Below are positions 1-50,005 of a stretch of 64,000 nt of DNA, piece by piece. Source of the stretch: a virus; IMG/VR virus record IMGVR_UViG_3300045988_058019, positions 32,001 through 96,000 of that record; one strand, given 5' to 3'. Within the stretch, counting starts at the first letter, position 1; every line of letters starts with the position of its first letter. A program made the position numbers and the translations under genes. Under the pieces are notes generated by a model. That model made no database searches. It was not told the DNA's origin and saw nothing but the letters and a program-made list of their open reading frames with translations.

Positions 1-2591
1 TCTGGAGTTATTTCTTCACTATCTATTACTTCATCCTCTTGCTTCTTTCCAGAGTATAAATCATCCAACTCCTATACAAAAGTATCTTCCTGATCTTCCA
101 CATCTAGCCACTTATTGATTTTTGCTATAGCTCCTTTAGGACTATTCATAGCATCTCTCTCAGCCTTAGCTCTTTCAAAATCAAGATTTACTATAATTTC
201 TTTTTCTTGTAAGTCCTTAAGAGTCTGATGAAGGTTAGGAATATTCAATTGTTCCTCTGTGATACCTAAGTCTTCTGCTTCTTTACGCAGCTATTGATAA
301 ACATTATCTATCTATTGTTTGTCTTTACTCAGTAAATGCTTAAACTTGATAACGTCAGACTTAGAAGTACGTATGCCCGTATTTTTCTCTAATTCAGACA
401 GCTTGTTACCATTACTGGTATAATCAGTTATGAGTTGATCATATAACTCAGTCTGTGATTTTAATCTGATTAAATTACGAATAGCTACTTCTTGATCAGG
501 GGTTACATCAGGCTTAATAGAAGATATATACTGGGATATTTCAGGACTATACATTAACTAGTCTACCTCTGATGTTATATTAGCTCTATTATTAGCAGCT
601 TCAGTAAGTAACGCTTCGTGGTGTTCTTTTAATGCTACAAATACATCATACTCTTCTGTTCTAGGATCTATTCCTGCTTTCATTGCTTGACTCATAGTGA
701 CAGGAGAAGTATACATATTTCTAATGAGTTCTGCCCTCTTTCTCTCGTTCTATATATCCTGTATATCTAATCCTTCTGTTCTAGATACTATATTTTCAGC
801 TTCATCAAAAGAACTCATAAGGTTATCATATTTACCAGTTCTAATGAAACTACTATACATGGCATTCTTTCTAACTCTATCTTTAGCATCCATCTATTCT
901 GCATACAAAGCAGATACAAATTGATCCGTAGGTAATTGACTATTTACTTGCATTACTGCAGAAGGAGCACCATACACACTAGTCATTAACCCTCCTAGTA
1001 AGGCGCCACCTTTAAAGTTATCCATAAATTCCTGATCATTTGAATATACAGGATCCCACGGAGTAATAGCTGCAAATATAGCACGAGCTCCAGTACCAAT
1101 ATTACGTATAAAACTTTTTACTAGATTTGGATTAGCATCAAAACTATTATCTATATATCTCTATCCCTTGATATATTGAACTCCTTCTCCAGCTCCCTCT
1201 AGTATTCCAGATACTAATATACGACCACCTAAATCAGTAATGGCTCTACGTTTAGTTCTCATAGGTAATCTACCTACATTATCTAAGCCAAAAGAAGTTA
1301 TATCGTCTATTCTATTAGATAATTGTTCTTGCAATCCCTTCTTTAGTTTAGTACCTTTATCAGCTAAAGTCTTTAAACCTTTTACTTTTTTAGCCATAGA
1401 ACCTATAGGTACTACTTCTATTGCTTGTTGGGCTATATCACTAATCGATAAAGCCATGTTATCTATATATAGAGATCTCAAACCTTCTCTATTATCTAGC
1501 ATAGCTTTATTAAACTTTCTATTATTTATTTTGATATCTCCAGAAAGTATACGGTCATATACATACTCATCATCATTAATTTGATCTGCGCTATAACCCT
1601 ATTGAGCCATCTTAATCTTAGCATCAGCTAATACATTTTCGTCTACACCTAATTTCTTAGCTGTATTCTTTACTGACTGCTTGTAGTTCTAGAATACTTC
1701 AGCTTTAGACTCTTGATCTCTACTGTATAAATTAGATCCTATAGATATTAACGCAGCAGCTCCTGCCACTAATGGATTACCAGCGCTGGCAGCATAATAA
1801 GCAGATATAGTACCTAACAAAGAAGAACCGACAGAAGCAGCACTAGATCCTGCTAAACCCGGTAATTTGAATAACCAAGTGTCTATGTCAGAATAATCCA
1901 TACCAGGCTTTTCTTTGTTCTTTCTATAATATTCTGAGGTTAACTTTTCATCAAATCTCTTAACTTTATCAGATTGTATTTCGGCATCTCTGAGAGAAAT
2001 TATCCTCTTATTATAGATATTATCATCTTTCATACTACCGTCAGGTCTAGTAATGGGGTTAATTTCTTTATCTATTTCTATTAATGCATTATCTAGATTG
2101 CCTTGTTTAAGACTACCTGTAATATAACTATTAAGATAATTGTTATTGAATTTACCAGATATAGCAGTATCATATGCAGATTTATTATTAACTTGCATTA
2201 AAGATGCTTCCTATAACTGCTATTTTAACTATTCATTAGTAGGATCCTGACTTAACTGTCTAGATAATTCTATTACTGCTTTACTAGAGTTTATATAATC
2301 TTTTAGGCTGATTAAGGTATTATAATCCTAATCAGCCATTATATACTCTCCTAACTTAGCGTCTCTTTCAGTTTGTGCTTTCGTTAAATTCCAATCATAG
2401 AACGCGTTAGAAGCCCAATCTGTAAAGCCATAATTATCAGGTGCTTCTTCATAGTTAGCATCTGGATTAGCCATACGATGCATATACTCCTCAGTATTAA
2501 TCTGAGGAGCTATCATAGCGTCATACATTGCCGTTCTTTGTCTAATACCATCTATTAACGATGTATCGTATACTTTCTTTTTCTTTGCCAT
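1..2591 (-). CDS. Large virion-associated protein, 3' end cut by window start (at least 863 codons); function unknown, possibly internal/ejected cargo protein
   Basis: ATG at 2589-2591. Track ORFs 2328..2591, 1689..2198, 1161..1502 and 312..554 share one frame. Codon-by-codon scan of 555-1160 and 2199-2327 found only TAG interruptions, no TAA/TGA. Confidence 0.75.
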
Positions 2592-2593
2592 AT

Positions 2594-4564
2594 TTATCTA
2601 CCTAATAATTGTTGTGCTGATGTCTGGTATTCATCTTTAGCTTGAGAAGATCCTCCAATACCGCTAGAAGATCCGCCTTGCCATCTTTGATTTACTCTTT
2701 GCCAATATTCTGAGGATGTATATGAATTTGGTAATGTTCTATAAGCATCTACTTCATAGTATTCAACTCCATCTTTGCCTACTACTTCAGTTACTTTAGA
2801 AGCGCCAAATTGTTGTTTGAGAGCTCCGCTAGTAGTCTATCTACCAAATGGCATAAAGTAACTAGAAGCCATTTCATTAAACACAGGATGATTTACCCAC
2901 ATACCTGTTCCTAATGATTTTTCAATTCTTTCCTTAGGTATTCTAAGTTTGCCAGATAAAGCCATACTTCCAGGTCCAGTCTTTACTACTTTATTATTTG
3001 GTATAAATTGAACTCCACTTAATTGACCACTTTCTACTAATTCTCTAAATGGAAAACTAGTGTCTCTTCCTATACCGGCATCTCTACGAGCTCTTCTACC
3101 AGGTCCTTCATTGCCAGCAATCATACTAAATACCGTTTCTGGTAATAAGAATCCTTCTGTAGTGTTAAATTGATATCCCTAATGTTTAATACCGTCACTA
3201 TCTTGTATTTCTGTAGATAATGCTCCAACACCCGTTAATAAGTCGTCTTTGTCAAGTAGACCAACAGGAGCGCTTACTTTGTTAAGTGCAGAATTTACTC
3301 CTTTTAAATAAGATTTAGTATTAAACTCTTTACTATCTTGACTAGTTAATGGAGAGAAACCAGCTACTCTCTAAAATTCATCTCTTACTACATGTTTGCT
3401 AGCTAAACCAACCATCTAACTCTATAACTGCCGAGCTCTGTTGCTAGCAGCTACTGCTGTTACATAATCTTCATCATTACCTGTTTGTCTATATCTAGCA
3501 CTGTACTCGTTAGCTGCCTACACCATGGATCCATATTCGTTCTGCATTCTATCTATATTACGCAGACCTTTACGCGCATCATCTGCAATTTTACTATTTG
3601 GATATTTAGTGATCAAACTAGATATATAATCTCTATAACTATTAAACTTATTACCTATTCCAGACATAGTATTTCTAGTAATGCTATCATTTAAGAAATC
3701 TAATCTAGTAGGATTAGGTCTTATTACTTCTTCGTTACTACCTCTATTACTTTGCTTAGCCATAGCTAACCAGTATGGATCTACAGTATCTTGATTTACA
3801 ATTCTATCTCTTTGTGAATCAGCTATCATTCCTACAAATCTTTGTCTAGCTAATTCAGTATCACCTCCAGAGGCATCTAGAGCTTCTCTATAATACTGTT
3901 GCCCTTGTGGTGTACTAATCAAATCATTAAATTTAGCATCTGCAATATCATACAATGTATCATATGTAATGCCTACTCTATTGTATTTGACTCCATCTTT
4001 CCATACAGATCCTATTGAACTAGGTTTTAGGTTACTAAAATAAGGATTAGCTAATTCATCAGCTGTCATATAGCGTAAAGGAGTAATTTGATCAAATACT
4101 CTCTTACTTCCTAAAGTGTCATAATTAGGTATATTAGCAGAATCCCAGCTTCGTTTATATCTACCCTCTGCTTCCATTTTAGCTCTCATTTCAAGTCCAG
4201 CTCTAAGATTATCAGCACTTTCTTTAAGCAAACTCAATGATCCATAATCTGTATTACTAATAATCGACTGTAAATTGGCACGAAAACCTGCATCTTTTAA
4301 GGCATCTGGATTAGAAACTATTTGATTAATAGCATCTTGTACATCTTGACGATTAATAGTTAAATTGTAGTAATTCTATGTGTCTATTGCAGATGGTGAT
4401 CTAAATTCTCCAAACTTTTGTAACTAAGTATTAAACTATTGTGCAGCCTCATCTACAGCTTGCTTCTACGCTGCTCCTATTCTATATAATTCACCAAAGT
4501 TAATAGGTACATATGTATTTAATATAGGAGCTTCCGCTGCTATATCATATCTATTAGCCTACAT
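2594..4564 (-). CDS. Virion-associated protein, about 656 codons, function unknown
   Basis: ATG 4562-4564 (second codon is TAG) overlaps the upstream gene end. Track ORFs 3518..4237 and 2837..3124 are in the same frame. Ends at TAA 2594-2596. Read through by eye; all interruptions are TAG. Confidence 0.65.
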
Positions 4565-6396: not shown

Positions 6397-9300
6397 TCAA
6401 ATTAATGAATTTCTGTATGTTGTTGTAATCTATGGTATTTCAAAAGTATGATCTATATCAGAATCTAACTCATAATCGCATATCATATACTTACCTCTTA
6501 ACCTAGCAGGTAACGATAACGCATCTTCATTCTTATCTGCTCTAGGTACTGGGAATCTAAATGTATCTTCTCTATAATCAGTTATTATATGTTGTTCAGG
6601 AGTAATAACATTACCTTCTTCATCAAGTTCTTCTTCAGTATGCTCTCTAATAGCTTCTTGATGTTTAGTACTGAATTTCATATAATCTATGATATCGTCC
6701 TTAATAGACTCTTGATTACCATCTCTAAACTCTCCTTGTAATCTAACATTATCAAATACTTTAGTATAAGGAGCATTCTTATTAATAACTATTTCTAATT
6801 TAGCTTTTCTATCCAAAGGAGTTAATCCTATTACTCCAGTATCATGTATAGTGTGCAATTCATTATCTTTTATTGCTACTACTCTATCAGAAATAGGTAA
6901 CGACCATTTAGGGTTAAATGTATAGAAAGATGTAAATCTACCTAACTATTCATTAAATATCAATGGCTTATTAAGTACATTGAACCATACTTCATTATAC
7001 TTTTTATCAAACAAAGACACGCATTTAGTTCTATCTTCTTTAATATTTTCATTAAAGTAAGATTGTACCTATTTCTCTTTAGATATTTGACTTACTTGAC
7101 CAGTATAAGAACACAGTTCATTCTTATCATAGTCATACCAGTATAACACATTATCTGAATTAATTATACTTTTATCATTCTTAATAGATGAACCATTAGT
7201 AGTAGTTACATAGTCAAATCTACTTAATATACCACCAGTACCTAATACTAACTGATTTACATTATCATCAGTAATAAGTGACCTTTCATTGACAGAAGCT
7301 ACTCCTACTCCAGTATCTTGGAAATAGAACAGTCTATCCTTAAATACTTTTAGATTGGTTATATCTCCCCACTGATTATCTACATCTAAATAATCAGCTA
7401 CTTTGAATTTAGACCACTAGTCTATTACTTCATTATTCGTTTTAGCCTATGATGTTAGTATTCTGTTAGTATATTTAACATCCTTATCAGCGTACATAGA
7501 ATTAGGTACATACAGTTTACCAGTATTCTATGCTGAGTAAACAGAGTTATATACAAAGTAAGGAAGATCTTGTACATGTATATCTTGCATCTGTGTAGGT
7601 TCTAACTATAACCAAGAGTCTGCAAAGTTTGAACTGGTTACGGTTCTATGAATCTAATCACCGTGGAATAAATTCATATTAATAGTACTCTCAAATGGTA
7701 TGTATGCGCCTATATAGTTCTTCATACCATCCCATTCTTTAGCGTCAGGTAATTGGAATAGCATAGTATTAGGATAATCTAATAAACTTAAATAAGTATC
7801 TCCTCCAAATACGTATTTGCTGTCACGCGCTGCTATACTTATGTATACAGAATTCTATCTAGATGAAAATGTATTACCACCATATATAGAATTACCATCA
7901 CGTTTAACGTTAAATACAGGAATAGCATTAGTAGAATCAAATGGATGGAGCTCTGGGTATTTGTTAGTAGGTACACTATTAAAACCTGCAAATGTTTTAC
8001 TTAATTCAGGTACATGAGCTATGATACATGGACCAGCTGGACCTTGTAATGATTGATTGTCATTATGAATAAAATCAGACATAGAATAATTAGTATAAGT
8101 TCTATTACCAACATTTATTCTTTTAGCTACAACATCAGGAGCTCCATACATATTATAATCTATATTAGGAGGATATTTAGCGTCTTCTATATATGATATA
8201 TCTTGAGACTGACCAAAAGTTGGAACAAAGTATTTAGCTATAGATGCTCCGCGATATACCTTCTTGCCTCTACTATCCTAATAAGGAAATCCTACTGCTA
8301 ATACATTAAGATCCCATCTTCTACCATAACCTACGTATGGTACAGTATCTTGCTGCAATACTTCGCCGTTTATTTGAGTAACGTAATCTGCTGCAGCGAA
8401 TATACTACGGCTTACACTGTTACCTATAGTATTACCATTAGTATAGTTGTCTTTAAAATCATCAAATTTACTATCGTTTACCTTTCCACCAACAAATGGA
8501 GAATAGTATGAACCGATTCCATCTAAGTACACACTTCCTTCAAATAGTCTAGTTACATCATCCCCTTGTACACATATCTCTGGAGATACAAGGCGTATAT
8601 AGTCATTTGCCCTCATAGTAAGGGAGAAGTTACCAACGTCTTCAGCTGTACCTGTTGATATTGCTAGTTGTTCACCAATTAGACTACAGAAGAAAGGTGT
8701 GGGTCTCATTTCCAAACTACTATCTAACTCAGATCCTTGACCAACCCACTTATCCTACTCTTGAATTCTATACTCATATACGTAACTACCTATAGTCTAC
8801 ATAAGCACAGTTCTATCACGTTCAGTTCTATCGCAACGAACTATTTCATAACTTACTGCACCAACAGGCATTTTCTTTACTTTAAATTCTACACCTAGAG
8901 CATTGCCTATAAGAGTATTGTTCTCATATTTAAACGGAGGCATTTGAGAAGCATGAGGCATTCTAATGTCACCTATCCAGAGTACAGGAGAAGCTACAGA
9001 TTTATCATTATAAAATATTATACCAAATCTATACACTTCATCTCTCTAGTATCCTCTATAATTAGCAGCTATATAAGGATCAGCATAATTAGGTATATAT
9101 GGATTATTCTTCTGCTCTTCAGTAGGCTGTAGTATTTCGGGCATCTTACTATCACCTCTGTTTATATATCTAGTGTTATTTCTAACAGTAGGTACATCCA
9201 TACTACAGGATTGGTCTAATCTAAACTTATCTTGTTTATTACTTAGATTTATATCTGTAGTTACAAATGAATATTCTATATTGATACCATAACCGCCTAG

Positions 9301-10554
9301 TTCACCTTCCTTATTATATATGTATATATTCTGTGAATTAGATGCATCCTTTGTATATTTTACATTGTTAAATGGATTTATACAGTCATGAGTAGCAGGA
9401 ATACGTTTAATAGCTTCATCATCTGTTATAGACAGACGAATGTTATTACTATCTAAACTAGATAATAGCTACACACTCCCTTCTGAATTAGCTCTGTAAG
9501 CTCTAGCATCATAGTCATTACCATCTTCATCTTCTGGTATCCAAGTATTCTCTGTTACATTAGCAGCAAATAATCTATTTTGCATTTTAGCAAGAGTCTA
9601 TGCTATAAACTGATAACCAGTCATAGCATTAAATTCTTCTACAGATATATCACTTAAAGTAGCTCCATAATCTACATACTGTATACTTGTTTGACCATCG
9701 GGTATATCTATTTCATCTACTATACTAATAGTAGGGGTAGAATTATTCTGTTCATAGAATATACGAATTACTCTTAACTTATTAAAGTCCTAAAGTGATA
9801 ATTCAGTAGATAGCATTACTGATTTATTTGATGCTTTATTCAGACCAGTACCTTTATATTCAGAACTACCTTGGCTAGTTACACTATTTGTTAAGTGAAT
9901 TAACTCACTCATTGGAGAAGTAACAGTTTCAGTGCCATGCACATTAAATAATTGATAACAATATGTTACCATTCCAGCTTTAAGATTACCTTCAGATAAC
10001 CAACGGAATTTAAACGGCAATAAACTTACTACTGGAGTTATTTCTAATGAACCAGGATTGATTATATTCCCATTCTCATCTATAAGATTAGAATTGTCTA
10101 TATACTCATTACTCATTATGTTAACAATCTTAATAGGACTGTTTCCATCAGTAAAGTATATCTTTATGTTAGTATCTGATTCATAGTTACCTACAATACT
10201 TAGTGTGGGATTCTTAGATAAATCTTCACACAACCCTAGAGCTCCTTTACATACTAATTTGATTTGAGGCATATTACTATCAAACCCCATTAATCTGTAT
10301 ATCTTATTAATGTTATCAGATGTTTTAGTTATTACTACCGCAATATCATTTATAGTAGTAGTACCTATTATCGTCTCATCTTTAGGTATAATAGTATCAT
10401 ATTTTCTAGGGTTCTCTATACTTTGTAATACTCCTGTAGTTCCTCCATCATTAGTGATAACACGAACATCCTCAGCATATCTATACTGAGTATCCGGTAT
10501 CAAATTTACGTCCTGGTCCATATTAAGACCTTGTGTAAACGTATTTATCTACAT
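6397..10554 (-). CDS. Very large tail structural protein (about 1385 codons), repeat/beta-rich; tail hub or muzzle-type role guessed from size and position
   Basis: Track ORFs 9790..10521, 8797..9036, 8278..8715, 7855..8151 and 6430..6858 share one frame. I scanned 6859-7854 (9 TAG, 0 TAA/TGA) and 9037-9789 (4 TAG, 0 TAA/TGA). Ends at TGA 6397-6399. Likely start is ATG 10552-10554 followed by TAG. Confidence 0.6.
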
Positions 10555-13381: not shown

Positions 13382-13945
13382 TTATTGACCAACCTTATCC
13401 ATAGCATTCTTCATATCCTAAGGGAGCATTTCCTTCATAGGTGGTGGTACCATCTAATTAGCTTTCCTTATTATATTTTTTAATTCGTTAACTTCTTTCT
13501 ATAACTCTATTATCTTATCATTCTCTTTAGCTGGTTCATTATCTACTCCAAGCTTATCTAATAGAGTCTAACACTTAGCCATTTCTTCATCGCATTTAGC
13601 TATAGCTTCTTTTCTTTGTTTGTACGTATCATATTGGTTACGCACTATATTTATAATCTCCTACTTATCTGTAGATATAGTAAGACCTAGTGCACTATCA
13701 GTAATAACTGATTTATTCTCAGGTATAGTGAACTTTTTAGTTTCTCCATTGCACTATATAGTTATATCTACTATTCTCTTTCTAGGCTGATTGGGCATAG
13801 GAAATTGCCCAGGTGGTAGTGGCTCATCATATACTGCACTTACTTGAGTAACGGAACCTTCATTATACTCAGTAGTTTTCTTGAATGTCCCAACCACTTC
13901 TATTATATATACCTTATCGCCTATGTTTAATTGATTGAATAACAT
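13382..13945 (-). CDS. Hypothetical protein, about 187 codons, coiled-coil-like C-terminal half
   Basis: Track ORF 13754..13945 ends in TAG. Frame scan of 13382-13753 found 5 further TAG and no TAA/TGA until TAA 13382-13384. Confidence 0.6.
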
Positions 13946-18325: not shown

Positions 18326-18461
18326 AAATAATATTTTCTGAAATACCTTCACGCATCTTCACTTTCGTTACCAATGCGTTCAAGAAGCATGTCATATTTT
18401 ACCAAGAGGTAAGGTTCAGCCCTTGATTTTTTGTCAGTTTATAATTTTTTTACGTATTTCA

Positions 18462-39097: not shown

Positions 39098-40567
39098 TCA
39101 CTCTGCTTCCATGATTAGTTCCCCACACGCACGTGGATCCCTTAACATTATGCCCATTTCTCCAAGGAAGAATACCGTGTAGCCGTCCTTACCATTAGAT
39201 CTCAGAGTATTAATAGACTTACCATAGCCAGACGGAAGAACTGCACCACCAGTAGTCCAAGTTACGAATTCACGATCCTTACGAACTACCTTAACGATGT
39301 TAGCTTCACCATCACGTCTACCCAGATCCAGGAATGTCATACGATATGATTCCAGCGGTTTCAGAGTAACCGGATGCAACTTACGATTGTAAGTAATATC
39401 GTCGTACAGCGGGAAATACTTCAGAGTCAACTCGATACCATTAGTCATCTTATAAGTCTTGAACTGACCACCGAAAGTAAGACTATCACCAGAACCAGTT
39501 ACAAATACAGTATCAATAAGGTTCATGTTAACTACCTTTTCCTTCAGAATTCTATCGAATTCACGGATACCCATTTCACCAGTCAATGCAACAAACTTAC
39601 GTTCGTTAGTACCAAGTACATTGTAAGACAGGTCAAACAGGAAGTCTTCTAGCAATTCTGCAGTAAGATGAGTATAGTAACGTCTGTTAGACGGAGCAAT
39701 CTGTTCCAACAGACCAGCACCAATAAATACTGGACGACCGTTAGTACCCTTCAGATTACAAGAACCATCTTTGTTTACATTAGATTTCATGTAAACCAAC
39801 ATACGTTCACATCTCTTATACCATTCACGCAGAGCTACCCATTCCTGATAATCAGCCCACAAATAAGACTTCTTACCAGTCTTAGGATCTTGCAAAGCAA
39901 TAGCCATTACTGTAGAATAAGCTGAACCAGTAATATCATAGTTGATACGAATTGTAGTAAGATAATTACGCATCTTGAAGTGAGTATTATAGTTCAGGAT
40001 ATCACCCTCTTCACTGTACTCTTCAACAGCAGAAGCCAGACGAGATACTTGGCAACCCGGTTTCAAGAGTTCTGCAGGAATATAAGAAGTAGGCTGACCA
40101 TCAGCTACAAAACAAGTATATACCCACAAGTTACCATCTTGGTACGGAGCACCTGCTACACGTACTTGGAATTCCTTATCGTCAAATTCCAATACAGCAG
40201 TAGGACCAAACCAGTTATCTTCTAACCACAGCATAATCGGTGTATTGCCAAGACCTGCAGTTGAATCATCTGTAATAGCTGCGCCATTCCATTTTGCATC
40301 TCTAATTGTAACTGCTCTATCGGCATCAATCATTACATTCCACTCCCAGCTCGGTTGATCAATGGTCATTACATTACCAAGACCACCAGTAAGCATATCC
40401 AAAGAAGTGTTGTAACCATTATCTTTGGTACCGAATACATAGGACAACACAGTAGCAACCTGATACGGATTCTATTGTGATGCTGCAGAAATCTTAGCGG
40501 TATCAATCAAATCACTGAACCACTTACCTTTATACAGTACCAAATTATTCAGAATATTATTATCCAT
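39098..40567 (-). CDS. Major capsid protein candidate, about 489 codons, a single in-frame TAG
   Basis: Track ORF 39098..40450 extends in frame through TAG 40472-40474 to ATG 40565-40567. TGA stop. Size, position after the scaffold-like gene and G/C-richer codons fit an MCP. Confidence 0.65.
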
Positions 40568-40598: not shown

Positions 40599-41759
40599 TT
40601 AATTAGCACGCAATCTTCGTGCGAAGGAATTCCACATAGACTCGGTGCTAGTGTTATCCTGTTTATTAGTCTTTCTACTTACTCCTGTTCTATTAAGGCT
40701 ATTTTTAAACTTGTTAATAGCAGCATTTTGACCTTTTACTTCAGCAGCTTTTACAAGCGTATCTCCTTTCATAGTAAAGTAGGCAGACTCAATTAAATTT
40801 TTTACGCTCTTAGACCAATCTTTTTGAAATTTGGTCATACCATCAGAGGTAGGTTTGAATATATATTCCAACAGTATTTGTTTATCCTTTTCAGGAATTT
40901 TAACACCGCGAATATTATCCATGCCCTTTATTTCGTTGACAACGGTATCAAAGTACTCCTGTTGACGTTGGGCTGCAAGCTTAGCGGCATTTTCTTGGTC
41001 TTTCAATAGCTGTTGTTTCTTATTCTCTCTTATGTCCTTAAGGGCTTCAGCAGCATCTTGAGACTCATCTTCAAGAATACCGGCTTCCTCATATTTAGTA
41101 AGTTTCTTTTCAATCTATTTAGCATTAAAACCCTTTTCTTTAAGGAATTCTTTCAATACTAACTTCTGATTACTTTCATCTTCGAGGTCGATATCATCAA
41201 GATCAATTTCATTGTCAATTGAGAAATAATCTCTCAAATTACCACCATTCTTAACAAACTTATCAAGTTGCTCAACTTCTTCACTAGCGTATTGTGGTAC
41301 TGAGTTTTCTTCAATTACATCGTTAAAGTAATCAATAAGATCTTCAACGGTCTTGGGTTTATCATCATCCTCAATGTCATCCCAACCTAACTTTTCAGAC
41401 AAAGAATCAAAGAAACCTGTTACTATGGTAGTTTCATCAGTAGACTCTTCTGGTTCTTCTTCCTCAACTTCAGGTTCTTCTACTTCTTCTTTTGTAGTAG
41501 TTTTAGGTTTAGCCTTAGGTTTAGATTTTACTTCTTTATCTTCTTCCTTAGATTCTTCCTCTTCCTCAGGTTCAGTTTTAGTATTCTTACGAATGTTATC
41601 TAATTCTTCTTCACTGAGTTCTTCTCCTACTCCTTCAAGATCAATTTTTGTTTCTTCCTCTTCCTCATTAGTAGGAGAAACAATAGGTTTATTCTTTACA
41701 CTTGCTCCTGGCATGAGATCCTCAAATACCTCAAAACCGTTCAATGTTACATTATCCAT
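40599..41759 (-). CDS. Acidic scaffold-like protein, about 386 codons
   Basis: Track ORFs 41115..41759 and 40599..41006 are in the same frame across TAG 41115-41117. Translation between them is continuous. Contains a long Glu/Lys-rich region. Confidence 0.6.
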
Positions 41760-41777: not shown

Positions 41778-42185
41778 TTATTGTATTTCTTTAAGTTCAT
41801 TTATTTCATGTTTGAGTTCATCGATAGCTTCATCAATGTCCTCTTCTGATTCACTTTCTTCTATATTGTATTCCTTATCAGTTAGACAGTATCTAGATAC
41901 TAATAGATCAAAGTAATATCTCAATTCTTCTTCATTGAAATATTTCTAATTAGTTAGTGCATCTAATTCCTCTCTAGTGAGATTTTTAGCATATAGTGGA
42001 TCTGTCCTAGGATCGAAAGTAGAATAACATGACTAATCTAACCCCGTATAGCTACCATCGTAATAATTGAATATAGTATCGGTACAATATACTGGAGTGA
42101 ATGTTTCGACGTACTATTGCTGCTTCTTGGCAGCTCTAATATAGGTCTATAATTTTATTTCAACTGTTATCGGATCTACTATCAT
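41778..42185 (-). CDS. Hypothetical protein, about 135 codons, acidic C-terminus
   Basis: ATG 42183-42185 overlaps the upstream TGA (ATGA). Several TAG. Ends at TAA 41778-41780, frame consistent. Confidence 0.45.
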
Positions 42186-43306
42186 ACTAATGTTTTATTA
42201 TTCCCATTACTAGTAATTGGAACTGAATTAAAATCTTTCACAAACTACCTTTTACTTTTATAAGTATTAAATAGTTTTTTCATATTATCGTTATCAGAAT
42301 TAAAAATCAAATCCTTTATTTGTTTCAATCCTACTTTACTATCAGGTTTCAATAGATTTTTATTTATCATGTTAGTCCTAAATTCATTCATATGCGATTT
42401 AGTTTCTTCAAAGTTATGTAAATATCTCTAAATCCAATCATACGTTTTAGGATACATAGTTTTAGTCTTTTTGGTATCTACGAATCTATTATCAAATATA
42501 GGCAAACTTAATGCTCCTGCTTTCTAATTATCATAATGACTTTTTTCATGACTTATTAAACCTGGCTATAATTTACCATTCTTAACGTAATCAGAATTAA
42601 TAAATACATAGTCAGGTATATTAGGATCGAAAGAACCATTAGCACTCATTGGTTTTATTCCGATCTACATTAAATCAGGAGAATTTTTACTTTTTGCATA
42701 ATTCTATAACTATTTTGTATAAGTTTTTACATAGTTTGTACCATATTTTTTATCAAAATTAGCTGCTCTTCTTAATGCATCCTCATTCTCTATAAGGCGC
42801 TCGTAACTAGCGTTTCTATCTTCAATAGCCTACTAATATAATTTAATCCTACCATCTCTATAATTTTTTGCTTCGTCTATAGCATTATCTATAGCTTTCT
42901 TATTTACCGTAGGTATTTCTCTTTTAGGAGTAACGCCCTTGTACTTCTTTCTAAAGTTTCTAACAGTAGTAGGTACGAATGATATCATAGTAACCGCAGC
43001 TAATCCAGCACCTAACCAATCTCTATTCTTTACCGCATTATAAGTATCTCTAGCTGATATAGCGTCGCCAATAGGAGTCATATTAGCAGCATCTTCAAGA
43101 CTGAATACAGGTTTTAAGCCTTCCTCTAAAGGTCTACCACTACTACTTCTACCTGTAGCTTGGAAGAATTTCTCCTTCTCAGGATCGCCTGTCTGACCAC
43201 CATCTGCAAATGCTTCTACCTTCCAATCCCAATAGCCTTTACCGGGATTATTCTCCCGGTAAGACTTTAGGTTTTGCATTCTCTATTTAAATGCTTGTTT
43301 ATCCAT
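42182..43306 (-). CDS. HExxH-motif protein (possible zinc metallopeptidase), about 374 codons
   Basis: ATG 43304-43306. Contains track ORF 42833..43279, which ends in TAG. Reading by eye continues to TGA 42182-42184. Motif ISHEKSH. Confidence 0.45.
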
Positions 43307-43385: not shown

Positions 43386-43850
43386 TTATTTAATTGTTTT
43401 AAGATATTGTTTCCAATTCTTCTTATTAGCCTTATATGTCTTCTTTCTATCCTTAATCTTGTACTTATCAAGATCTTCAGGCTTACGTGTTTTCAGATAA
43501 TCAAAGTTATCATCATTAGCATAAGCTTCCATCTCATAAGGAATAGTATAGTAAGCACTAGATGCAGGATAAATAATCGGATTACCTTTAATCCATTCCC
43601 ATACATAAGACCAATAATAACTTATCCATCTCTTCTTATCTTTAGCTTCATAAAGATGAATATTTTCATGATTCCAAGTAGTAGGCTTAATCTGAGATTC
43701 AGGTTTTCTACTTAACAAGTAACCACACCAGCTCATTGCAGAATAACCACTAAATGGATAATGATCCATATGCTTATACTCTACTTTATCTGCTTTTACT
43801 TTAGTAAATAGTTGTTTAACTATCCACCATGTTTCTTTAAACCAATTCAT
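43386..43850 (-). CDS. HExxH-motif protein, 154 aa
   Basis: Intact track ORF with motif WNHENIH and TAA stop. Confidence 0.6.
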   Translation of the reverse strand: MNWFKETWWIVKQLFTKVKADKVEYKHMDHYPFSGYSAMSWCGYLLSRKPESQIKPTTWNHENIHLYEAKDKKRWISYYWSYVWEWIKGNPIIYPASSAYYTIPYEMEAYANDDNFDYLKTRKPEDLDKYKIKDRKKTYKANKKNWKQYLKTIK

Positions 43851-43852
43851 AA

Positions 43853-46372
43853 TTATTTACTCTTTTTAGCTTCTGCGTTTGTCTTATTCTTAAGTGCTGT
43901 CTTAGCTTTTAATCTTTCTCTCTCCATTGCTGCTTTATCTTTAGCTGCTTGCAACTTCATTTCGTGATCCATTCTTTCTCTTTCAAGCTGATTTTTCTTA
44001 TCTTCTATCTCTTTCTTCATCTTCTGCTCTCTAATCTTAGCATTGAATTCAAATTGTTTAGAAGCTTCATCAGATGCTTGCTTACGTTCAGCTAAAGCTT
44101 GTTGAGCTATCTCTACTGGATCTGGAATTCCATTACCGTCTTGATCCATATTCTCAGCACCTCTATAGGCATTAAGTTGAGCTACAGTAATCTTAGTAGC
44201 ATTATCTTGATCTATCTTATATTTCTCAAGATCCATTTCTGCTTCTTTAATCATGAGCTCCTCTTCCTTAATCTCATTTTGCATCTGAATAGCTTGCTGT
44301 TCACGTTCTGCTTGAGCTTGTTCCATAGCTTGTTGTTGCTCCATACGTTTTTGCTCAATTTCCTCTAATCTAGACTTAATCATACTAATATTATCCATAG
44401 TAATGATTTCAGCTATATCAAGTAAGCTAGCTCCGTTCTGCATAGCAGGTTGCATTAACTGCTTAAGTGTTTCTATATACTGTTGATTCTTAGTAGTATC
44501 TTCTATAAAGATATCAAAATCCTCATAAAGCATATCATCTGATAGCGTTAAGAATGCTCTAGTAGCATCATCTAATATATATTGTAGATGAGTTTTACTA
44601 CTATCTTTCCAAGCCCATCTAGCAGTATTAAGTAGCATAGTTAAGCATTCTCTCTTTACCTAATTGTGTGTCCAGAACCAAGGTTCAGTAATATGAGCTG
44701 ATTGTACTACAGAACGCTCTACATTACCTACTAATTCATTAGATGAAATAGACCCTTCTCTTTGCTTACTAACTCCAGATATCTCAGATAGCATACTTTC
44801 AATCTTATCCATAAGATTAATATACTAATCTATAGTATTAGCCATAGTAAGGTCAAGAGCTGTAATCTAGTTAAACTGACTAGGTTTACCTCCTTCTCTA
44901 CCAGGTATATCCCATCCTTCTTCATACGGATTAATAAAGTTTACACCAAGAGCAGATAAATAATGCATCCATTTAGATACATCTATATTCATAGATTTTG
45001 GTATCTAAGTAATATCCATATTTACTACTTTACCTTTATCTCTAGCCATAGCAAGCTCAAGTCTATACCATAGTACAATATACATATACTGTAATGGTTT
45101 CATCATGCTTACTAAACTACGTGGTCTACTGTTTGTATTATTATATACTACTCCAGTATAAGGCAATCTCTAAGAGTTAGGATTATCAGATGAAGTATAT
45201 TGATATTCTAATGGTTGTATTCCTATATATAAGTCTTCTCCAGCTCTATATCCTTCCCATACTTCGGTAATCCATTTCCATTCTACATTAAGTTCCATCC
45301 CGGTCTCTTTATAGCTCTCATCTACTTGATATTCTTTAGGCTCACCTAATTCAGGATCAATTATAGTAACAAAACCTATTTTCTTAAATGATTTCCAGCA
45401 ACAGTGCCATACTTTCACACTATTAGTACTATCAAATGGATTACTACTGAATCCGTTAATAGTATGTGTTTTAATATGAGTATAGTCTAAAGATGTCTTT
45501 CTTACTTCAGGATTTATACCTCCTTTAGAAGCTTGATCCATCATATCTAACAACTAATTTAGCTGTTTCTCAGACATCTTATCGTATAATCTATCATATA
45601 GTTCAGTTACAGACATATTCATTTCATAACAACACCATTCTGCGTCATGAATGAATTCCAAGTCGGACGTTTCAGTATCATAATCAAAGTAGATAGGATT
45701 AACACGTTCGAGGCACGGTTCTCCATTCAGTATACCTACATAGTATATCTCTTCACCACCAACTAAAGCATCTTTCCAACCTTTGAAGAATTCATGAGTA
45801 ATGTTTAACTTATTTTTTAAGTAATTAAGACTGTGATATGCAGTTACTTCTGCTATATCTTTATAGTCTTTACTCATGTATTTTTGTATCTACTAAGGAG
45901 TCATTATCTCACCATTCTGTAAAGCTTCCTAGTATCTAGCTTGTTCTTCAGGACCTAATTTACTCATTATAGTAGCCTGAATGTAATCTATTAAAAGCTA
46001 TTTAGCTCTATCCTACATTTCACTAGCAGCTATATCACTTGTACGTACTACTCTGAAGTTGAATGGTCTTTTAGTTTCTTCTCCCAACAGTAAGTCTATT
46101 TTGGGCTTAATTATATTATAATCCTAAGCCATTGCAGGAAAGCCATCCTGCTATTTAAAAGGATTAGTAACATATTTCAGATCTTTTTCATTGTATATAC
46201 TATTATAAAGATCATAGTATGTTTGCATCTCCTCTCTGCGAGTTCTGTTATTACCATTTCTAGAACCTCCTAAACTACGACCTATAACATAGTCTATACA
46301 ACTTTCTTGCCAGTCTTTTGTCTTCTTAGACATAGGAAGTTTCTATATTGGCATTTGATTAATATTATTCAT
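43853..46372 (-). CDS. Portal protein candidate, about 839 codons
   Basis: Track ORFs 46151..46333, 45554..45877, 45170..45553 and 43853..44638 share one frame, and the checked junction stops are TAG. Lies immediately downstream of TerL. ATG 46370-46372, TAA 43853-43855. Confidence 0.65.
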
Positions 46373-46374: not shown

Positions 46375-48456
46375 TTAAAACATATATGCTTCGATATTAT
46401 CTATAGCTTCGTCGTCACGAAACCATTCCTGAGTAAATATAGGGCCTTCAAACAGTACCCTATTTCTATTCTCTTTTTTAATCTCTTTTACTTTAACATT
46501 ATATAGCTATTCTCTATATATCATTACTTGGGTCAACGCCATTACACGGTCTACGTTAACTACATCGTTTGCAGCTATAAGTTCCTCTAATAGCGGTTCC
46601 GACATTATATTGTATAAGTTCTTCTTGCCATCTGCATTAATATCGTTAAGCCAATCCTTTATTAGACCCCATCCCCATTGCTTAATCTATTTATTCATGT
46701 GGCAACCTTTCTTTCTATTTACTTTAGAATTACTTACTATATCGTTAATTATATCTGGTTGATCAGCAAGTAAGTAGTCACAATGCTTATTAGTAAAGTA
46801 AACAAATATGCCTTTATTTTGATTCTCATACATTGCTCTAGCATTATAGTATATAAGTAATTTACGTACATTTTCATAAAAATCTTCTGCTGACTTAGGT
46901 CTGCCTGTGTACTCTGCTACTATTATATCTGAATACTATTCTATAGACTATACTCTCTTATATATAAAACAAGAACCCAAAGATGTAGTACTTGATTCAT
47001 CATAGTCGTATGAGTCTATACCTGCAATATACAAACCAGCACTAGCATCCTTATTAGGATGCTCCCATATTACTATAGAACCAGTAGGATCATCTCCTAC
47101 TAATGCTCCAGTAACTTCATCCCTTTTAGTTCTTAATGGGTAATGTGTTATATCTCCTGTCTTCTTAATAACCCATTTAAGACTACCGTCAGGTTGCCAT
47201 ACTAGATCACCTACCTACTTATGATTCTATAATTTTTTATTAGTTCTGAGTAATGATAACTACTCTTGTAATTCCTTCTTGGGGAATATGTTACCATTAA
47301 ACTCTAGCATGGCCTCTGCTGGAGTAATAGGTCTCTCTGCAACGTATCTGTCAACTGCTGCGTTATTAGTGGCATTAGTTATTACTACTTGCCTTTCTGC
47401 TAATATGTGTTCTAAAGACTTCTTACGGTACGTATTACCGTCCTCGTCCATATATATACGTTTACCATTCTCATCACGTATATCTAAGTTAGTATATTGA
47501 GGTACAAAGAAACCACATTTATTAGTAGTAGCAGACTCATCCCATATGTTATCAAACCCTAAACAATTGTATCCATCAGGGTTGTAAAACATATCCTTCA
47601 TAGTTTCAAATGCAGAACCTTCATCACCACCAGTACCCCATACTATCATAGTACCAAAGGCTATACCATCTACCTCTACAGAAGGTCTAGCAATTTGCCA
47701 TGCTGCTCCTAATTCAGAGAAAGAACCACCTTCCTCAAACATAATAAGATTAGCTTTCTTACCACGTACTACATCAGGATTATCTTTCAAAGTAACCCCT
47801 ATAATCTCTGACTTATAACCTAATTCTATAATATTACCGTAGTCATCCTTAGTATAGAATCCTGCACGTCTACGCATCTAAGTGTTAACTGATCTCTTCT
47901 TACCCCACGCAGTATTCTTATCTATAAAGTCCATATAATCCCAAGCTTTAGTAAGAATACCATCATCTGTCAAATACTATTTATTTGATGCATATATGAA
48001 GGTTTTAGAGTATGGTATTAGATAGAAATTACGGCATGCCATAGAACCACCTTTGTATGAAAAACCTTTACGTCTAGACTTAAGTAAGCATAAATGTTTA
48101 CCCTACTCTTGGGCTTCCTATACTGCATTAAAATAGTAATAGTCGTAATCCCAGAAGTCGGGGAAAGTTACCTCATTAACACGTTTTACTTTAGTATTAC
48201 CTAATTCATCTGTAGTAATATGATTGACTATACGAGATATAGGACAATAGTTTAAATAAAAATAGTTATACCCACTAATGAAATCTCCATCATCAGCAGT
48301 ATAACCATCTACGCATCTTTTACTTTCCTCATCCCAGAACTTAAAATATTCTGAAGTACCTTCTGGATATACGCAATAAGAACCAGTAGCTATAAACTAT
48401 AGTGCTGGTCCTCTAAATTTATTACTATTTACTATCTTCTTATTAAAGTCTACCAT
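46375..48456 (-). CDS. terL: Terminase large subunit, about 693 codons
   Basis: ATG 48454-48456. Contains track ORF 47260..47877 with LIMFEEGG and WGTGGDEG motifs. Read through TAGs to TAA 46375-46377, frame consistent. Confidence 0.7.
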
Positions 48457-48457
48457 A

Positions 48458-48643
48458 TTATAATTTTATATCCCAAGTATATTCTTCTTCTGTAATATCT
48501 GTTTGGTTAGGCGGATATGATAAATAATCGCAAGTGGGACACATGCTATATAGTTCATCAATCATTTGCAAGAGTTCTGGAACATTTGGGAAATTCCTGT
48601 TCTCTTCGTTTCCACCAACATTTAAACTTTTCATATTCTTCAT
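48458..48643 (-). CDS. Small hypothetical protein, 61 aa
   Basis: Intact track ORF. TAA stop 2 nt before the TerL ATG. Confidence 0.45.
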   Translation of the reverse strand: MKNMKSLNVGGNEENRNFPNVPELLQMIDELYSMCPTCDYLSYPPNQTDITEEEYTWDIKL

Positions 48644-48696
48644 AATCTAACCAATAAGTATTTCTTCTAACTTTAATCTCCATCATAATATTATTT

Positions 48697-48728
48697 AAAA
48701 GGGGCGCGTTTCACAACGAACCCCTTTC
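48697..48728 (-). terminator. Hairpin/terminator candidate downstream of the tRNA-HEG unit
   Basis: 7-bp stem AAAGGGG/CCCCTTT with a 16-nt loop. On the minus strand it runs into TTTTAAAT. Confidence 0.4.
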
Positions 48729-48923
48729 CGAAAATGGGAAAAAATTATTTTTTAGAAATAGGGAGATTTCTGTAGCTGCAACCTAGTTTCTTAATCTAGG
48801 GATTTATACGCCGTATATTTAGTACTCCCCACCTGGGCTAACATTACCCCAGACTACCTGTTCACGATAACTACCTATCCAACAAGTTTCCTTCTGCTAT
48901 TATAGTTTCAAAGGACTAGTATT

Positions 48924-49904
48924 TTAAGCAGTCTGCTTGCAGTCAGACTGCATTAATTCTTTCTTCCAGATATAACCTTTACACGTCTTAGCTCTACCAT
49001 TGCAAGCTCTCTGTATAGATTTATAGTCAGTGTTTACTGCCTTAGCCGCATTGTGCATTCCCATATAAGTAGCTACTAATATATCATCTAAAGTATACTG
49101 GTAAACTAAATACTTAGTAGATGCCACTCTTAGTTTTTCTTTTTGCTCTTCAGACATCTTTTTACCTTTATTCAATCCAACCATACCTTTAACCCAGTTA
49201 GAATTGCCAAAATATACTTTATTACGTTTATATCTCTTAACCAAGGTAGATTTATTCTTTTCATACTCTTCTAACCATAATGGAATGTTAGACTTTTTAT
49301 CTTCTAATTCTTCTTTAGTATATGCTGCAATAAAATTATTACAAAACGGGTGGATGTAATTATTGTTGCATAGTCTACCTATATTAGAGCGACTCAGGCC
49401 TGTAATAGTTGCTGCATCCTTGATAGTCCAAGCATATATATAATATCTATCAATAAAATTATATAAATGTACACGCTTACCGAATGTACCGTTTGCTACT
49501 AATTTTTTAGTATTTTCAGATACTTTCTTCTTTTGCTCTTCTGTCATCTTGAGTCCAAGAACTCCAAAATCACCACCTTTAGTACAATTGTATCCCTCTG
49601 TATAAGCGTTGTATTTTTCAATATACTCTATTTCTAATTTGTCTAATGTTTGAATTAGTTCTAAATTAGAAATATTTGGATCTGGAATAAATGATTCCAG
49701 TATATCTACAGTAAAGTTATGAAAACCGTACTTATTTATTGCTCTATAAATTGGTAAATCTAATTTTCCATTCTTAGCATTTCGCATATGGTCTTTTAGT
49801 CTTGATCTTAGTTTAACACTTTGACCAATATAACATTTACCATTCACATTATTTTTGATTATATATATACCAGCTAACTTTGGATCTATATCTCTGTATG
49901 TCAT
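48924..49904 (-). CDS. GIY-YIG homing endonuclease, 326 aa, no TAG
   Basis: N-terminus GIYIIKNNVNGKCYIGQS...YNCTKGG. C-terminus CKGYIWKKE. TAA stop. Sits 26 nt downstream of the suppressor tRNA. Confidence 0.85.
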   Translation of the reverse strand: MTYRDIDPKLAGIYIIKNNVNGKCYIGQSVKLRSRLKDHMRNAKNGKLDLPIYRAINKYGFHNFTVDILESFIPDPNISNLELIQTLDKLEIEYIEKYNAYTEGYNCTKGGDFGVLGLKMTEEQKKKVSENTKKLVANGTFGKRVHLYNFIDRYYIYAWTIKDAATITGLSRSNIGRLCNNNYIHPFCNNFIAAYTKEELEDKKSNIPLWLEEYEKNKSTLVKRYKRNKVYFGNSNWVKGMVGLNKGKKMSEEQKEKLRVASTKYLVYQYTLDDILVATYMGMHNAAKAVNTDYKSIQRACNGRAKTCKGYIWKKELMQSDCKQTA

Positions 49905-49930
49905 ATCTGCAAGTTTTATATGAATATTGG

Positions 49931-50005
49931 TTGGGGCGGCAGGGCTCGAACCCGCACATCACAGAGGTTTAGAATCTCCGGTACTACCAATTATACCACG
50001 CCCCA
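49931..50005 (-). tRNA. Amber-suppressor tRNA, anticodon CUA, Gln-like acceptor stem
   Basis: Cloverleaf drawn by hand. Acceptor stem TGGGGCG/CGCCCCA (U1-A72, G2-C71, G3-C70). D-stem GTAT/GTAC. Anticodon loop TTCTAAA (CTA at 49970-49972). T-arm GCGGG-TTCGAGC-CCTGC. There is an A31-C39 mismatch and a 7-nt variable loop. Confidence 0.8.

Follow-up and report, generated by a model that had tools for sequence, protein, structure and literature searches.

Suppression of the amber codon by a glutamine tRNA is exemplified by Escherichia coli supE (the glnV amber suppressor), a tRNA-Gln with a CUA anticodon that inserts glutamine at UAG in competition with release factor 1, while the linkage of a homing endonuclease to phage tRNA genes is known from SegB of phage T4, a free-standing GIY-YIG endonuclease in a tRNA gene cluster whose tRNA region is co-inherited with the endonuclease. 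Among crAss-like phages, TAG-to-glutamine recoding, mostly of late genes and accompanied by suppressor tRNAs, has been described for the delta group (Yutin 2021; PMC7886860), peptides with glutamine at TAG have been detected in two phages (PMC9523058), and a model in which recoding governs the timing of late genes and lysis has been proposed for recoded phages (Borges 2021; 10.1101/2021.08.26.457843). In the Jade and Agate clades, TGA is reassigned to tryptophan, with a “code change module” and a suppressor tRNA just ahead of the recoded genes, and in Agate phages a homing endonuclease within an early gene is heavily recoded (10.1101/2021.08.26.457843). The recoding reported here is real but described: the phenomenon itself, its late-gene bias, and the insertion of glutamine have already been published for the crAss-like family (Yutin 2021; Borges 2021; Peters 2022).

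The DNA analysed here, hereafter the window, is a stretch of 64,000 nt (positions 32,001 to 96,000 of IMG/VR record IMGVR_UViG_3300045988_058019) that represents some 64 kb of a phage genome of roughly 100 kb. By sequence comparison, the source is a gut crAss-like phage of the Crassvirales, family Suoliviridae (formerly the “delta” group), nearest to cr53_1: the top DNA matches, at 74-94% identity, all belong to this family, and the gene order is collinear with that of classified members. Specifically, cr53_1 (NC_055889.1; Crassvirales, Suoliviridae, Loutivirinae, Blohavirus americanus) shows 94.0% nucleotide identity over 80% of positions 30000-50100, in a partial-genome comparison only, where membership in one species would call for 95% or more across complete genomes, and the order of the late-block genes is collinear with its gp57-gp92. 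In this phage, the late module is very probably written in genetic code 15, in which UAG is a glutamine codon, and served by the phage's own CUA suppressor resembling a tRNA-Gln; a timing role of the recoding is the interpretation towards which the analysis leans.

On the minus strand, code 11 yields 35.8 kb of stop-to-stop open reading frames of 300 nt or more, a total that rises to 57.9 kb when TAG is sense, and the longest grows from 1731 to 4245 nt, whereas the sum reaches just 36.5 kb with TGA as sense and 44.8 kb with TAA as sense, the maximum length in the latter case being 1731 nt. With TAG as sense, the late block (1-49904, minus strand) resolves into 38 genes for virion, packaging, lysis, and diversity-generating retroelement (DGR) functions, including the beginning of a gene for a giant virion protein, and contains 191 in-frame TAG among 16,039 codons. 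Its genes terminate at TAA (32) or TGA (5) and never at TAG, in keeping with the first-pass annotation, and the curated genes of the whole window stop at TAA in 48 cases and at TGA in nine, with no TAG. The rule by which open reading frames were defined would extend any gene truly ending in TAG, and no TAG-containing gene behaves in this way; the merged genes have no in-frame TAA or TGA. Coding density and reading-frame length both favour code 15 over code 11: 96.4% of 1-49904 is covered by the curated code-15 genes, against 56.8% by in-frame code-11 fragments of 60 aa or longer, the 38 genes falling apart under code 11 into 229 pieces whose median length is 20 aa.

The proposal of a TAG-sense code had been based on eleven stretches in which TAG appeared to be the only in-frame stop. 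All eleven lack internal TAA and TGA in the frame that was read, three of them starting on the terminal TAA of their own gene, and TAA, TAG, and TGA all abound in their other two frames. TAG occurs three times at 555-1160, three at 2199-2327, seven at 6859-7854 (nine had been counted), three at 9037-9789, five at 11602-12144, five at 13382-13753, seven at 16066-16707, eight at 17303-18325, three at 27204-27746, as first counted, and three at 30704-31336; the stretch at 20429-20626 is free of TAA and TGA but also has no TAG. Two further statements had to be cut back: ATGA and TAATG overlaps, described as frequent, are present but infrequent (2 and 3 of 51 junctions), and not every gene call changes, TAG being found in 33 of the 38 late genes, in 3 of 14 genes that precede the tRNA, and in no plus-strand gene.

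Homology searches with merged proteins retrieve full-length homologues and not separate short proteins. The terminase large subunit TerL (46375-48456, minus strand, 693 aa, 12 TAG) forms one continuous match to the phrog_6681 TerL profile over residues 20-670 (E = 1e-153), across all 12 TAG, and the portal protein (43853-46372, minus strand, 839 aa, 14 TAG) matches PhiCrAss001 portal gp20 (7qog; E = 2.5e-96) from residue 7 to residue 797, with 12 of its TAG sites within the alignment and the remaining two in an alignment gap; more than 8000 database homologues of the portal include that of cr53_1, at 97% identity. Neither TAA and TGA at the density of TAG, nor another anticodon, nor fragments corresponding to separate proteins were found, and every test agrees with the original view of TAG-sense late genes, a phage amber-suppressor tRNA, and a mechanism known in crAss-like phages.

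The load of TAG differs among late genes, the most abundant virion proteins being nearly without it, whereas it is plentiful in the lysis genes and in the gene for the DGR reverse transcriptase. The TAG-poor major head protein (39098-40567, minus strand, 489 aa, orthologue of cr53_1 gp86, “major head protein”) has a single TAG, or 8% of its glutamine-type positions. The lysis-regulator/spanin-like gene (16066-16707, minus strand) has seven, or 54%, and is orthologous, together with the holin (16679-17188, minus strand, one TAG), to the cr53_1 gp68/gp69 pair, while the endolysin (23870-24316, minus strand, 148 aa) has two and matches phrog_894 over residues 5-138 (E = 2e-18). The DGR reverse transcriptase (17303-18325, minus strand; Pfam RVT_1, E = 8e-20), whose gene adjoins a TR/VR pair, has eight, or 73%. 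Five late-block genes are TAG-free, and two of these encode GIY-YIG homing endonucleases; one lies next to the tRNA, and the second (38004-39014, minus strand, 336 aa; Pfam GIY-YIG, NUMOD1, and NUMOD3) is missing from cr53_1, whereas cr115_1 and cr6_1 carry it at this site.

TAG and glutamine codons number 191 and 461 in the late genes versus 11 and 94 in all others (Fisher p = 2e-5). The divergent plus-strand arm (57477-63929) consists of ten open reading frames, one more than the nine first reported at 57.7-63.9 kb, all ending in TAA, free of TAG, and compatible with the standard code; its six larger genes contain 53 glutamine codons. Upstream of the tRNA, 11 of the 14 genes are TAG-free and use 35 glutamine codons, and in cr53_1 the replication arm contains only 10 TAG among 7119 codons. 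Since the plus-strand genes and most upstream minus-strand genes lack TAG, they are translatable by a standard-code host ribosome, and they would be the genes expressed early. The tRNA is no clean boundary between codes, because three genes upstream of it, all on the minus strand, are recoded, with conserved in-frame TAG. The first (50763-51077, 104 aa) carries tandem TAG-TAG at codons 38-39, and conservation of the protein runs beyond these positions in cr53_1 (TAG-TAG), cr4_1 (Glu-TAG), and cr109_1 (Glu-Thr). The second, a small gene (54108-54365), has two to four TAG depending on its true start; the TAG at codon 22 faces glutamine in cr115_1, and that at codon 40 is conserved. The third (54966-55685; Pfam GIY-YIG) is a homing endonuclease with five TAG, inserted at the 3' end of thyX, the TAG at codon 159 facing glutamine in related endonucleases and the last 39 aa matching the C-terminus of cr53_1 ThyX.

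The tRNA with anticodon CUA and encoded CCA (minus strand) is delimited to 49928-50005 by ARAGORN and to 49931-50005, the coordinates first given, by the Rfam tRNA model (45.5 bits), folds as a cloverleaf, and lies on the TerL strand, as the first-pass annotation had it. Its position ahead of TerL stands, with the refinement that the gene immediately downstream encodes a GIY-YIG endonuclease and not TerL. The tRNA has A73 and, in its UGGGG/CCCCA acceptor stem, a U1-A72 pair. When 185,579 species genomes were scanned for its D-arm with any anticodon allowed, at least 120 matches came up, comprising at least 68 tRNA-Gln, at least 49 tRNA-His, and at least 3 others. All 49 listed tRNA-His begin with G, while the phage tRNA begins with U1:A72 like most listed tRNA-Gln, and the best cellular D-arm-sharing relatives among the matches listed are tRNA-Gln(CUG), with 79% identity. 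The acceptor stem, the U1-A72 pair, and the D-arm are thus of the tRNA-Gln type and point to a probable glutamine identity. Around the tRNA, a search for promoters and terminators scored no better than on shuffled sequence, and no release-factor or aminoacyl-tRNA synthetase gene was found among 20 scanned window proteins or in the annotations of the relatives.

The TAG-free endonuclease between the tRNA and TerL (48924-49904, minus strand, 326 aa) matches Pfam GIY-YIG (E = 2e-9) and, below threshold, NUMOD1 (E = 1.6e-4, 22.2 bits versus a cut-off of 22.8). At each of the 33 IMG/VR loci with a gene for a related endonuclease, a tRNA(CUA) ends about 23 nt upstream of that gene, while cr53_1 has no endonuclease beside its tRNA, which is another allele, about 70% identical. 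Compared with cr53_1, the boundaries of the segment fall at the endonuclease stop codon and at nucleotide 3 of the tRNA, after 107 of 107 identical bases; at locus L035, identity is 100% for about 500 nt from the tRNA on, with flanks that are 50-70% identical. The tRNA and the adjoining endonuclease therefore appear to be an exchangeable cassette among divergent relatives.

In the timing interpretation, the TAG-free genes would be expressed first, an order taken from the literature; the suppressor tRNA would then build up and, again following published work, be charged with glutamine by a host enzyme and outcompete release factor 1 at UAG, so that full-length structural and lysis proteins would become possible only after these steps. 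Alternatively, and with a lower but not trivial likelihood, the recoding is real but serves mainly another purpose than timing: as a weapon or anti-defence device, the suppressor tRNA would cause read-through at the UAG stops of host genes and so damage host and defence proteins, whereas the TAGs of the phage would be tolerated or driven by drift, TAG and CAG being one transition apart. This role has been proposed by Yutin et al. (PMC7886860) and in a paper on the zeta group (PMC12386605), and it is in agreement with the free exchange of TAG and glutamine codons among close relatives, with the three recoded genes beyond the late block, and with the tmRNA of cr53_1 and cr115_1, which could relieve ribosomes stalled after read-through. 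Moreover, the base 3' of TAG resembles the base 3' of CAG, as CAG-to-TAG mutation predicts, and thus gives no sign of a suppression-tuned context. Drift alone would nevertheless not account for the plus-strand genes, which have no TAG, or for the cr53_1 replication arm, which has almost none. The lysis genes rank with the most TAG-rich, in line with Borges et al. (10.1101/2021.08.26.457843); besides, a weapon and a timer are compatible with each other.

It is very improbable that TAG is sense throughout the infected system from the very start, through a host suppressor or otherwise independently of the phage tRNA, with no code switch and with genes that are TAG-free by chance or composition. 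Suppressor tRNAs were found in only about 40% of the TAG-recoded phages surveyed (10.1101/2021.08.26.457843), and no CUA tRNA was detected in the 45 kb of cr115_1 examined, though its orthologues are recoded, so that a phage-encoded tRNA at this site would not be needed in every relative. However, at the share of about 28% that TAG holds of late-module glutamine positions, its absence among the 53 plus-strand glutamine codons has a probability of 0.72^53, about 3e-8, and a further 35 glutamine codons without a TAG come from the eleven TAG-free upstream genes. Furthermore, the tRNA(CUA) is kept at its site in cr53_1, cr4_1, cr6_1, and cr109_1 as well as in the 33 related loci, and standard-code hosts are predicted for most recoded gut phage clades (10.1101/2021.08.26.457843).

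The amino acid meaning of TAG was read from codon alignments of the window with six related phages, represented by seven loci. In these, a window TAG faces TAG at 199 of 312 positions and another codon at 113, of which 80 are CAA or CAG and 13 encode glutamate; in the reverse direction, 7.7% of window glutamine codons face TAG in the relatives, versus at most 0.6% for any other residue. Judged by these alignments, TAG is glutamine in the late genes. There is only a very faint chance of another amino acid, such as glutamate, lysine, tyrosine, tryptophan, or pyrrolysine. Such a reading could draw on the minority of glutamate partners, on the “Pyl” label that ARAGORN gives to the tRNA purely from its anticodon, and on the portal of the distant PhiCrAss001, where glutamine occurs at 3 of 12 aligned TAG sites and the others are Glu, Asn, Lys, Asp, Tyr, Cys, and Ile, a figure that would fit low conservation and alone is not decisive. 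It is countered by the excess of glutamine partners and the glutamine-specific reciprocal signal, by the tRNA-Gln type of acceptor stem and D-arm, by the glutamine found in the proteomics of related phages (PMC9523058), and by the absence of pyl genes among the scanned window proteins and in the annotations of the relatives. Lastly, damage (a decaying or defective phage, or an assembly or sequencing error), suggested by nothing beyond the shattered look under code 11, has a negligible probability and was rejected, the 199 shared TAG sites being kept in independent genomes, no gene being interrupted by TAA or TGA, and thousands of near-identical portals being present in public data.

Compared with known systems, the suppressor shares with supE a tRNA-Gln body carrying a CUA anticodon, but supE is a mutant gene of the host chromosome that suppresses partially, whereas here a conserved phage gene serves about 200 essential sense positions. 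As with T4 SegB, a GIY-YIG homing endonuclease lies beside a phage tRNA gene; unlike there, the neighbour is the code-switch suppressor and not an ordinary tRNA, and the evidence here is comparative alone. Jade and Agate phages likewise combine standard-code early genes with recoded late and lysis genes, although with another codon and another amino acid, and the five-TAG endonuclease in thyX parallels the recoded early-gene endonuclease of Agate phages. The late genes of cr53_1 are recoded alike, with TAG common to 123 of 148 aligned sites across two loci (L001 and L002), its GenBank record has merged genes and a tRNA-Gln (anticodon CUA) ahead of TerL, and it has the same early arm with tRNA-Leu and Hatchet ribozymes; it differs in a 1.1-kb insertion in TerL, in the lack of the GIY-YIG endonucleases at 38004-39014 and 54966-55685, and in a 1.5-kb “phosphoesterase” gene in the place of the small endolysin. 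The published code-15 crAss-like phages (Yutin 2021; Borges 2021/2022; Peters 2022) share with the window the TAG codons in one contiguous structural and lysis module, the suppressor tRNA, the standard-code early/replication arm, and the TAG-rich lysis genes, and they differ from it in nothing essential, the particular traits here being a leaky boundary and abundant virion proteins that are nearly TAG-free.

The minus-strand late genes of the window read TAG as a sense codon. The first-pass annotation had claimed that TAG is the sole in-frame stop in eleven minus-strand stretches, and a codon-by-codon recount in the same frame returned no internal TAA or TGA, with TAG occurring at 555-1160 (3), 2199-2327 (3), 6859-7854 (7, where 9 had been claimed), 9037-9789 (3), 11602-12144 (5), 13382-13753 (5), 16066-16707 (7), 17303-18325 (8), 20429-20626 (0), 27204-27746 (3), and 30704-31336 (3); the remaining two frames of these stretches hold numerous stops of all three kinds. 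Reading TAG as sense raises the minus-strand total of stop-to-stop ORFs of at least 300 nt from 35.8 kb under the standard code to 57.9 kb and extends the longest ORF from 1731 to 4245 nt, while TGA-sense (36.5 kb) and TAA-sense (44.8 kb) readings leave the longest ORF unchanged and were rejected for bringing no gain in long ORFs. The curated set under genetic code 15 (TAG read as Gln) comprises 38 closely spaced minus-strand genes covering 96.4% of 1-49904, with 191 in-frame TAG in 16,039 codons; 32 of these genes end in TAA, 5 in TGA, and one extends beyond the window edge. Split at TAG, the same genes yield 229 fragments (median 20 aa), of which those reaching 60 aa cover just 56.8% of the block. 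The plus-strand ORFs, described earlier as TAA-ending and free of TAG, are so in 10/10 cases at 57.5-63.9 kb. The TAG-sense observation is thus confirmed, and the interpretation placed on it is supported, with refinements.

The merged code-15 proteins are real. Residues 7-797 of the portal protein, whose gene has 14 TAG, align to the solved portal gp20 of PhiCrAss001 (E = 2.5e-96), the large terminase subunit TerL, with 12 TAG, matches a single TerL profile over residues 20-670 (E = 1e-153), the endolysin alignment spans both of its TAG codons, and the reverse transcriptase, with 8 TAG, matches RVT_1. A megablast of 30000-50100 against GenBank phages matched 27 records; among the best 15, the 12 that are named are all crAss-like phages, and 6/6 of the matched records whose entries were examined belong to Suoliviridae. 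The top match is cr53_1 (NC_055889.1; Suoliviridae, Loutivirinae, Blohavirus americanus), which matches 80% of the query at 94% identity, and its GenBank annotation already carries merged late genes in the order of the window, namely TerL, portal, protease, major head protein, tail proteins, reverse transcriptase of the diversity-generating retroelement (DGR), holin, lysis regulator, and giant virion proteins, with a "tRNA-Gln" annotated ahead of TerL. A protein search with the portal returned at least 8000 homologues, many of them 96-98% identical, indicating that the lineage of the window is heavily sampled. A split or intron-containing TerL was first suspected, as the cr53_1 protein has 1059 aa and the window has ORFs of 693 and 326 aa lying 467 nt apart; it was rejected because the shorter ORF encodes a GIY-YIG endonuclease and the longer one a whole TerL, and because the extra length of the cr53_1 protein is a 1.1-kb internal insertion. 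That in-frame insertion, at 31465-32562 of the cr53_1 locus (L001) and absent from the window at the corresponding junction (47617), is probably an intein of the kind reported as typical of delta-group TerL (Yutin et al., PMC7886860).

The amino acid inserted at TAG is glutamine. The protein-database search yielded only close relatives already translated with TAG as sense and had no independent word on this amino acid; for this reason, codon alignments and the sequence of the PhiCrAss001 structure were used. Every window protein, with X at TAG, was aligned to seven loci from six related phages, and the codon facing each TAG was read and counted only where the flanking residues are conserved. 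TAG stands opposite TAG at 199 of 312 aligned sites; the other 113 comprise 80 CAA/CAG and 13 Glu codons, with any other residue occurring at most 4 times. In the reverse direction, the relatives place TAG opposite 7.7% of the window's Gln codons and opposite at most 0.6% of those for other amino acids. TAG makes up 28% of the Gln-type positions of the late block, whose Gln content is 3.0% without TAG and 4.2% with it. The distant PhiCrAss001 portal, in which a residue aligns at 12/14 TAG sites and is Gln at 3/12 and mostly polar at the others, is compatible with the same assignment but weak as evidence.

The CUA tRNA previously placed at 49931-50005 was recovered by ARAGORN at 49928-50005 (minus strand, CCA encoded) and by the Rfam tRNA model at 49931-50005. 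It folds into a cloverleaf and carries a U1-A72 pair, an acceptor stem UGGGG/CCCCA, discriminator A73, and an anticodon loop UUCUAAA; the "Pyl" label given by ARAGORN merely restates the anticodon and was set aside. The isotype was assessed independently of the anticodon by scanning with the D-arm of the tRNA, leaving the anticodon free, across one genome per bacterial or archaeal species. Among the 120 matches listed, 68 are tRNA-Gln (CUG 42, UUG 26), 49 tRNA-His, and 3 others; the 5' nucleotide is G in 49/49 of the listed His tRNAs and U, like the phage tRNA, in 48/68 of the Gln tRNAs, and the top matches listed are tRNA-Gln(CUG) with 79% identity and the same acceptor stem. The anticodon stem (49966-49979, minus strand; tRNA positions 27-43) has an A31-C39 mismatch as its innermost pair, which shortens the folded stem to 4 bp and widens the loop to 9 nt; this arm sequence also occurs in the phage cr4_1 and in most IMG/VR alleles, and cr53_1 has G31-C39. 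The orthologues of another relative, cr115_1, are recoded, with TAG at 46/73 aligned window TAG sites. ARAGORN finds no CUA tRNA in the 45 kb covered (L004, 1-45528), which takes in the gap upstream of TerL that is the tRNA site in other family members; the cr115_1 tRNA may lie elsewhere, be too divergent for detection, or be supplied otherwise.

In the window, TAG is a sense codon for Gln in the late module, which a tRNA-Gln(CUA) on the same strand precedes, and TAG-free genes lie outside this module. Following the timing suggested by the literature, the unmodified host would first translate the TAG-free genes; the suppressor tRNA would then build up, receive glutamine from the charging system of the host, and compete with RF1, and full-length structural and lysis proteins would be made only after the suppressor takes hold. 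The suppressor may also have the anti-host role proposed by Yutin et al., which is compatible with a role in timing. No release-factor or synthetase gene was found among the window proteins scanned or in the annotations of the relatives. A sigma-70 scan of 48300-50400 gave 12 promoter-like sites against 10.7 expected, with Bacteroidota-type promoters outside the coverage of the tool, and a scan of the same interval for intrinsic terminators gave none on the gene strand; these scans do not assign the tRNA to a transcription unit.

TAG use follows gene position and function. Late genes differ from all others (Fisher p = 2e-5). Plus-strand genes contain 0 TAG against 53 Gln codons, and of the 14 minus-strand genes that precede the tRNA at 50246-57094, 11 have none. 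The replication arm of cr53_1, which corresponds to sequence outside the window, has 10 TAG in 7119 codons. The transition from one code to the other is leaky, since three minus-strand genes upstream of the tRNA hold in-frame TAG flanked on either side by conserved coding sequence, namely 50763-51077, with a tandem TAG-TAG, 54108-54365, with one TAG opposite Gln in cr115_1, and the GIY-YIG endonuclease gene 54966-55685, with 5 TAG, one of which is opposite Gln in related endonucleases. Within the late block, five minus-strand genes lack TAG, namely two GIY-YIG endonucleases (48924-49904 and 38004-39014), a small protease-like gene (43386-43850), 34793-35767, and 15397-16032, and the major head protein and 40599-41759 have a single TAG each. 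At the other end of the range, TAG accounts for 54% of Gln-type positions in the lysis regulator (16066-16707), 50% in the endolysin (23870-24316), 73% in the DGR reverse transcriptase (17303-18325), 52% in TerL (46375-48456), and 67% in 42182-43306. TAG is avoided by the most abundant virion proteins and favoured by lysis genes and the DGR reverse transcriptase, a gradient that agrees with the published TAG bias of lysis genes (Borges et al., 10.1101/2021.08.26.457843). The base 3' of TAG is A in 45% of cases, akin to 40% after CAG and indicative of no special suppression context, and TAG is evenly distributed along genes with no 5' bias.

Several further elements accompany these genes. The 5-TAG endonuclease gene lies at the 3' end of the TAG-free thyX (55672-56472, minus strand; Pfam Thy1), and its final 39 aa correspond to the C-terminal end of ThyX in cr53_1. 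The tail of thyX is thus duplicated at the insertion. An HNH endonuclease gene (56459-57094) sits immediately upstream of thyX. This recoded selfish gene within a standard-code gene resembles the Agate-phage case (Borges et al., 10.1101/2021.08.26.457843). The DGR (17303-21148, minus strand), whose reverse transcriptase is among the most TAG-rich genes, has a template repeat at 18464-18556 that is 73% identical to the variable repeat at 18702-18794, both on the minus strand, the latter in the C-terminal part of the tail protein 18587-21148; by eye, the mismatches fall at plus-strand T, corresponding to coding-strand A. On the plus strand, the apparently non-coding gaps at 60632-62105 hold four Rfam-level structured RNAs. 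RAGATH-6 (60632-60782, 173.5 bits) is followed by RAGATH-7 (60845-61044, 190 bits) and by a pair of Hatchet self-cleaving ribozymes at 61746-61869 and 62009-62105, and a tRNA-Leu(UAA) lies on either side of the group (59936-60021 and 62634-62717). The equivalent arm carries three Hatchets, RAGATH-9, RAGATH-14, and a permuted tmRNA in cr53_1, and two Hatchets, RAGATH-9, and a tmRNA in cr115_1; the early regions of Suoliviridae thus seem to host the Hatchet and RAGATH orphan RNA classes regularly, and a literature search on these RNAs in crAss-like phages found nothing relevant.

The TAG-to-Gln finding is correct and matters for annotation, and it is already known, because the public annotation of cr53_1 embodies it. 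Delta-group crAss-like phages were reported to read TAG as Gln, chiefly in late genes, with suppressor tRNAs, and to abound in introns, inteins, and endonucleases (Yutin et al. 2021, PMC7886860), and Gln was detected at TAG in peptides of two crAss-like phages (Peters et al., PMC9523058). The window is a further well-resolved case of this published pattern and adds no new principle. Under the standard code, 36 window genes are fragmented, and the portal, TerL, tail, lysis, and DGR genes would be missed or mis-called; pipelines run on this contig need code 15 for the minus-strand late module.

The tRNA had been said to head the late block ahead of TerL; it is indeed co-oriented and ahead, but the adjacent downstream gene is the TAG-free GIY-YIG endonuclease, not TerL. 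In many relatives a tRNA-Met(CAU) separates the endonuclease gene from that of TerL; the window has none. In contrast to the window, cr53_1 has no endonuclease beside its tRNA, which is ~70% identical to that of the window; upstream of the tRNA the two sequences are identical at 107/107 positions, divergence begins at tRNA nucleotide 3, and the stop codon of the endonuclease gene is where homology returns. Relatives of the endonuclease are encoded at 33 IMG/VR loci, and a tRNA(CUA) ends ~23 nt upstream in 33/33. The 78-nt tRNA of the window is identical in three of them (L030, L035, and L038), whose flanks and TerL share just 65-74% identity with the window, and in L035 a ~500-nt tract is 100% identical from the tRNA through the first ~400 nt of the endonuclease gene. 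The breakpoints and the identical tRNA amid divergent flanks argue, at the level of sequence comparison, that the tRNA and endonuclease behave as a unit swapped between divergent phages. A wider proposal, tentative and slightly less likely than not, is that the determinant of the code switch is itself mobile: a cassette of tRNA(CUA) and GIY-YIG endonuclease would spread in Suoliviridae, the endonuclease targeting the suppressor loci of endonuclease-less phages and installing the linked tRNA allele. Within this proposal, the suppressor-tRNA locus serving as putative target would be essential to those phages. The literature search, of incomplete coverage and thus weak as evidence of novelty, found no report linking a homing endonuclease to a suppressor tRNA. 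If confirmed, the cassette would help to account for the passage of suppressor tRNAs from one phage lineage to another. The closest known system is phage T4, in which the SegB endonuclease drives the exchange of the tRNA region, whereas the endonuclease of the window is only a candidate driver, known from sequence comparison.
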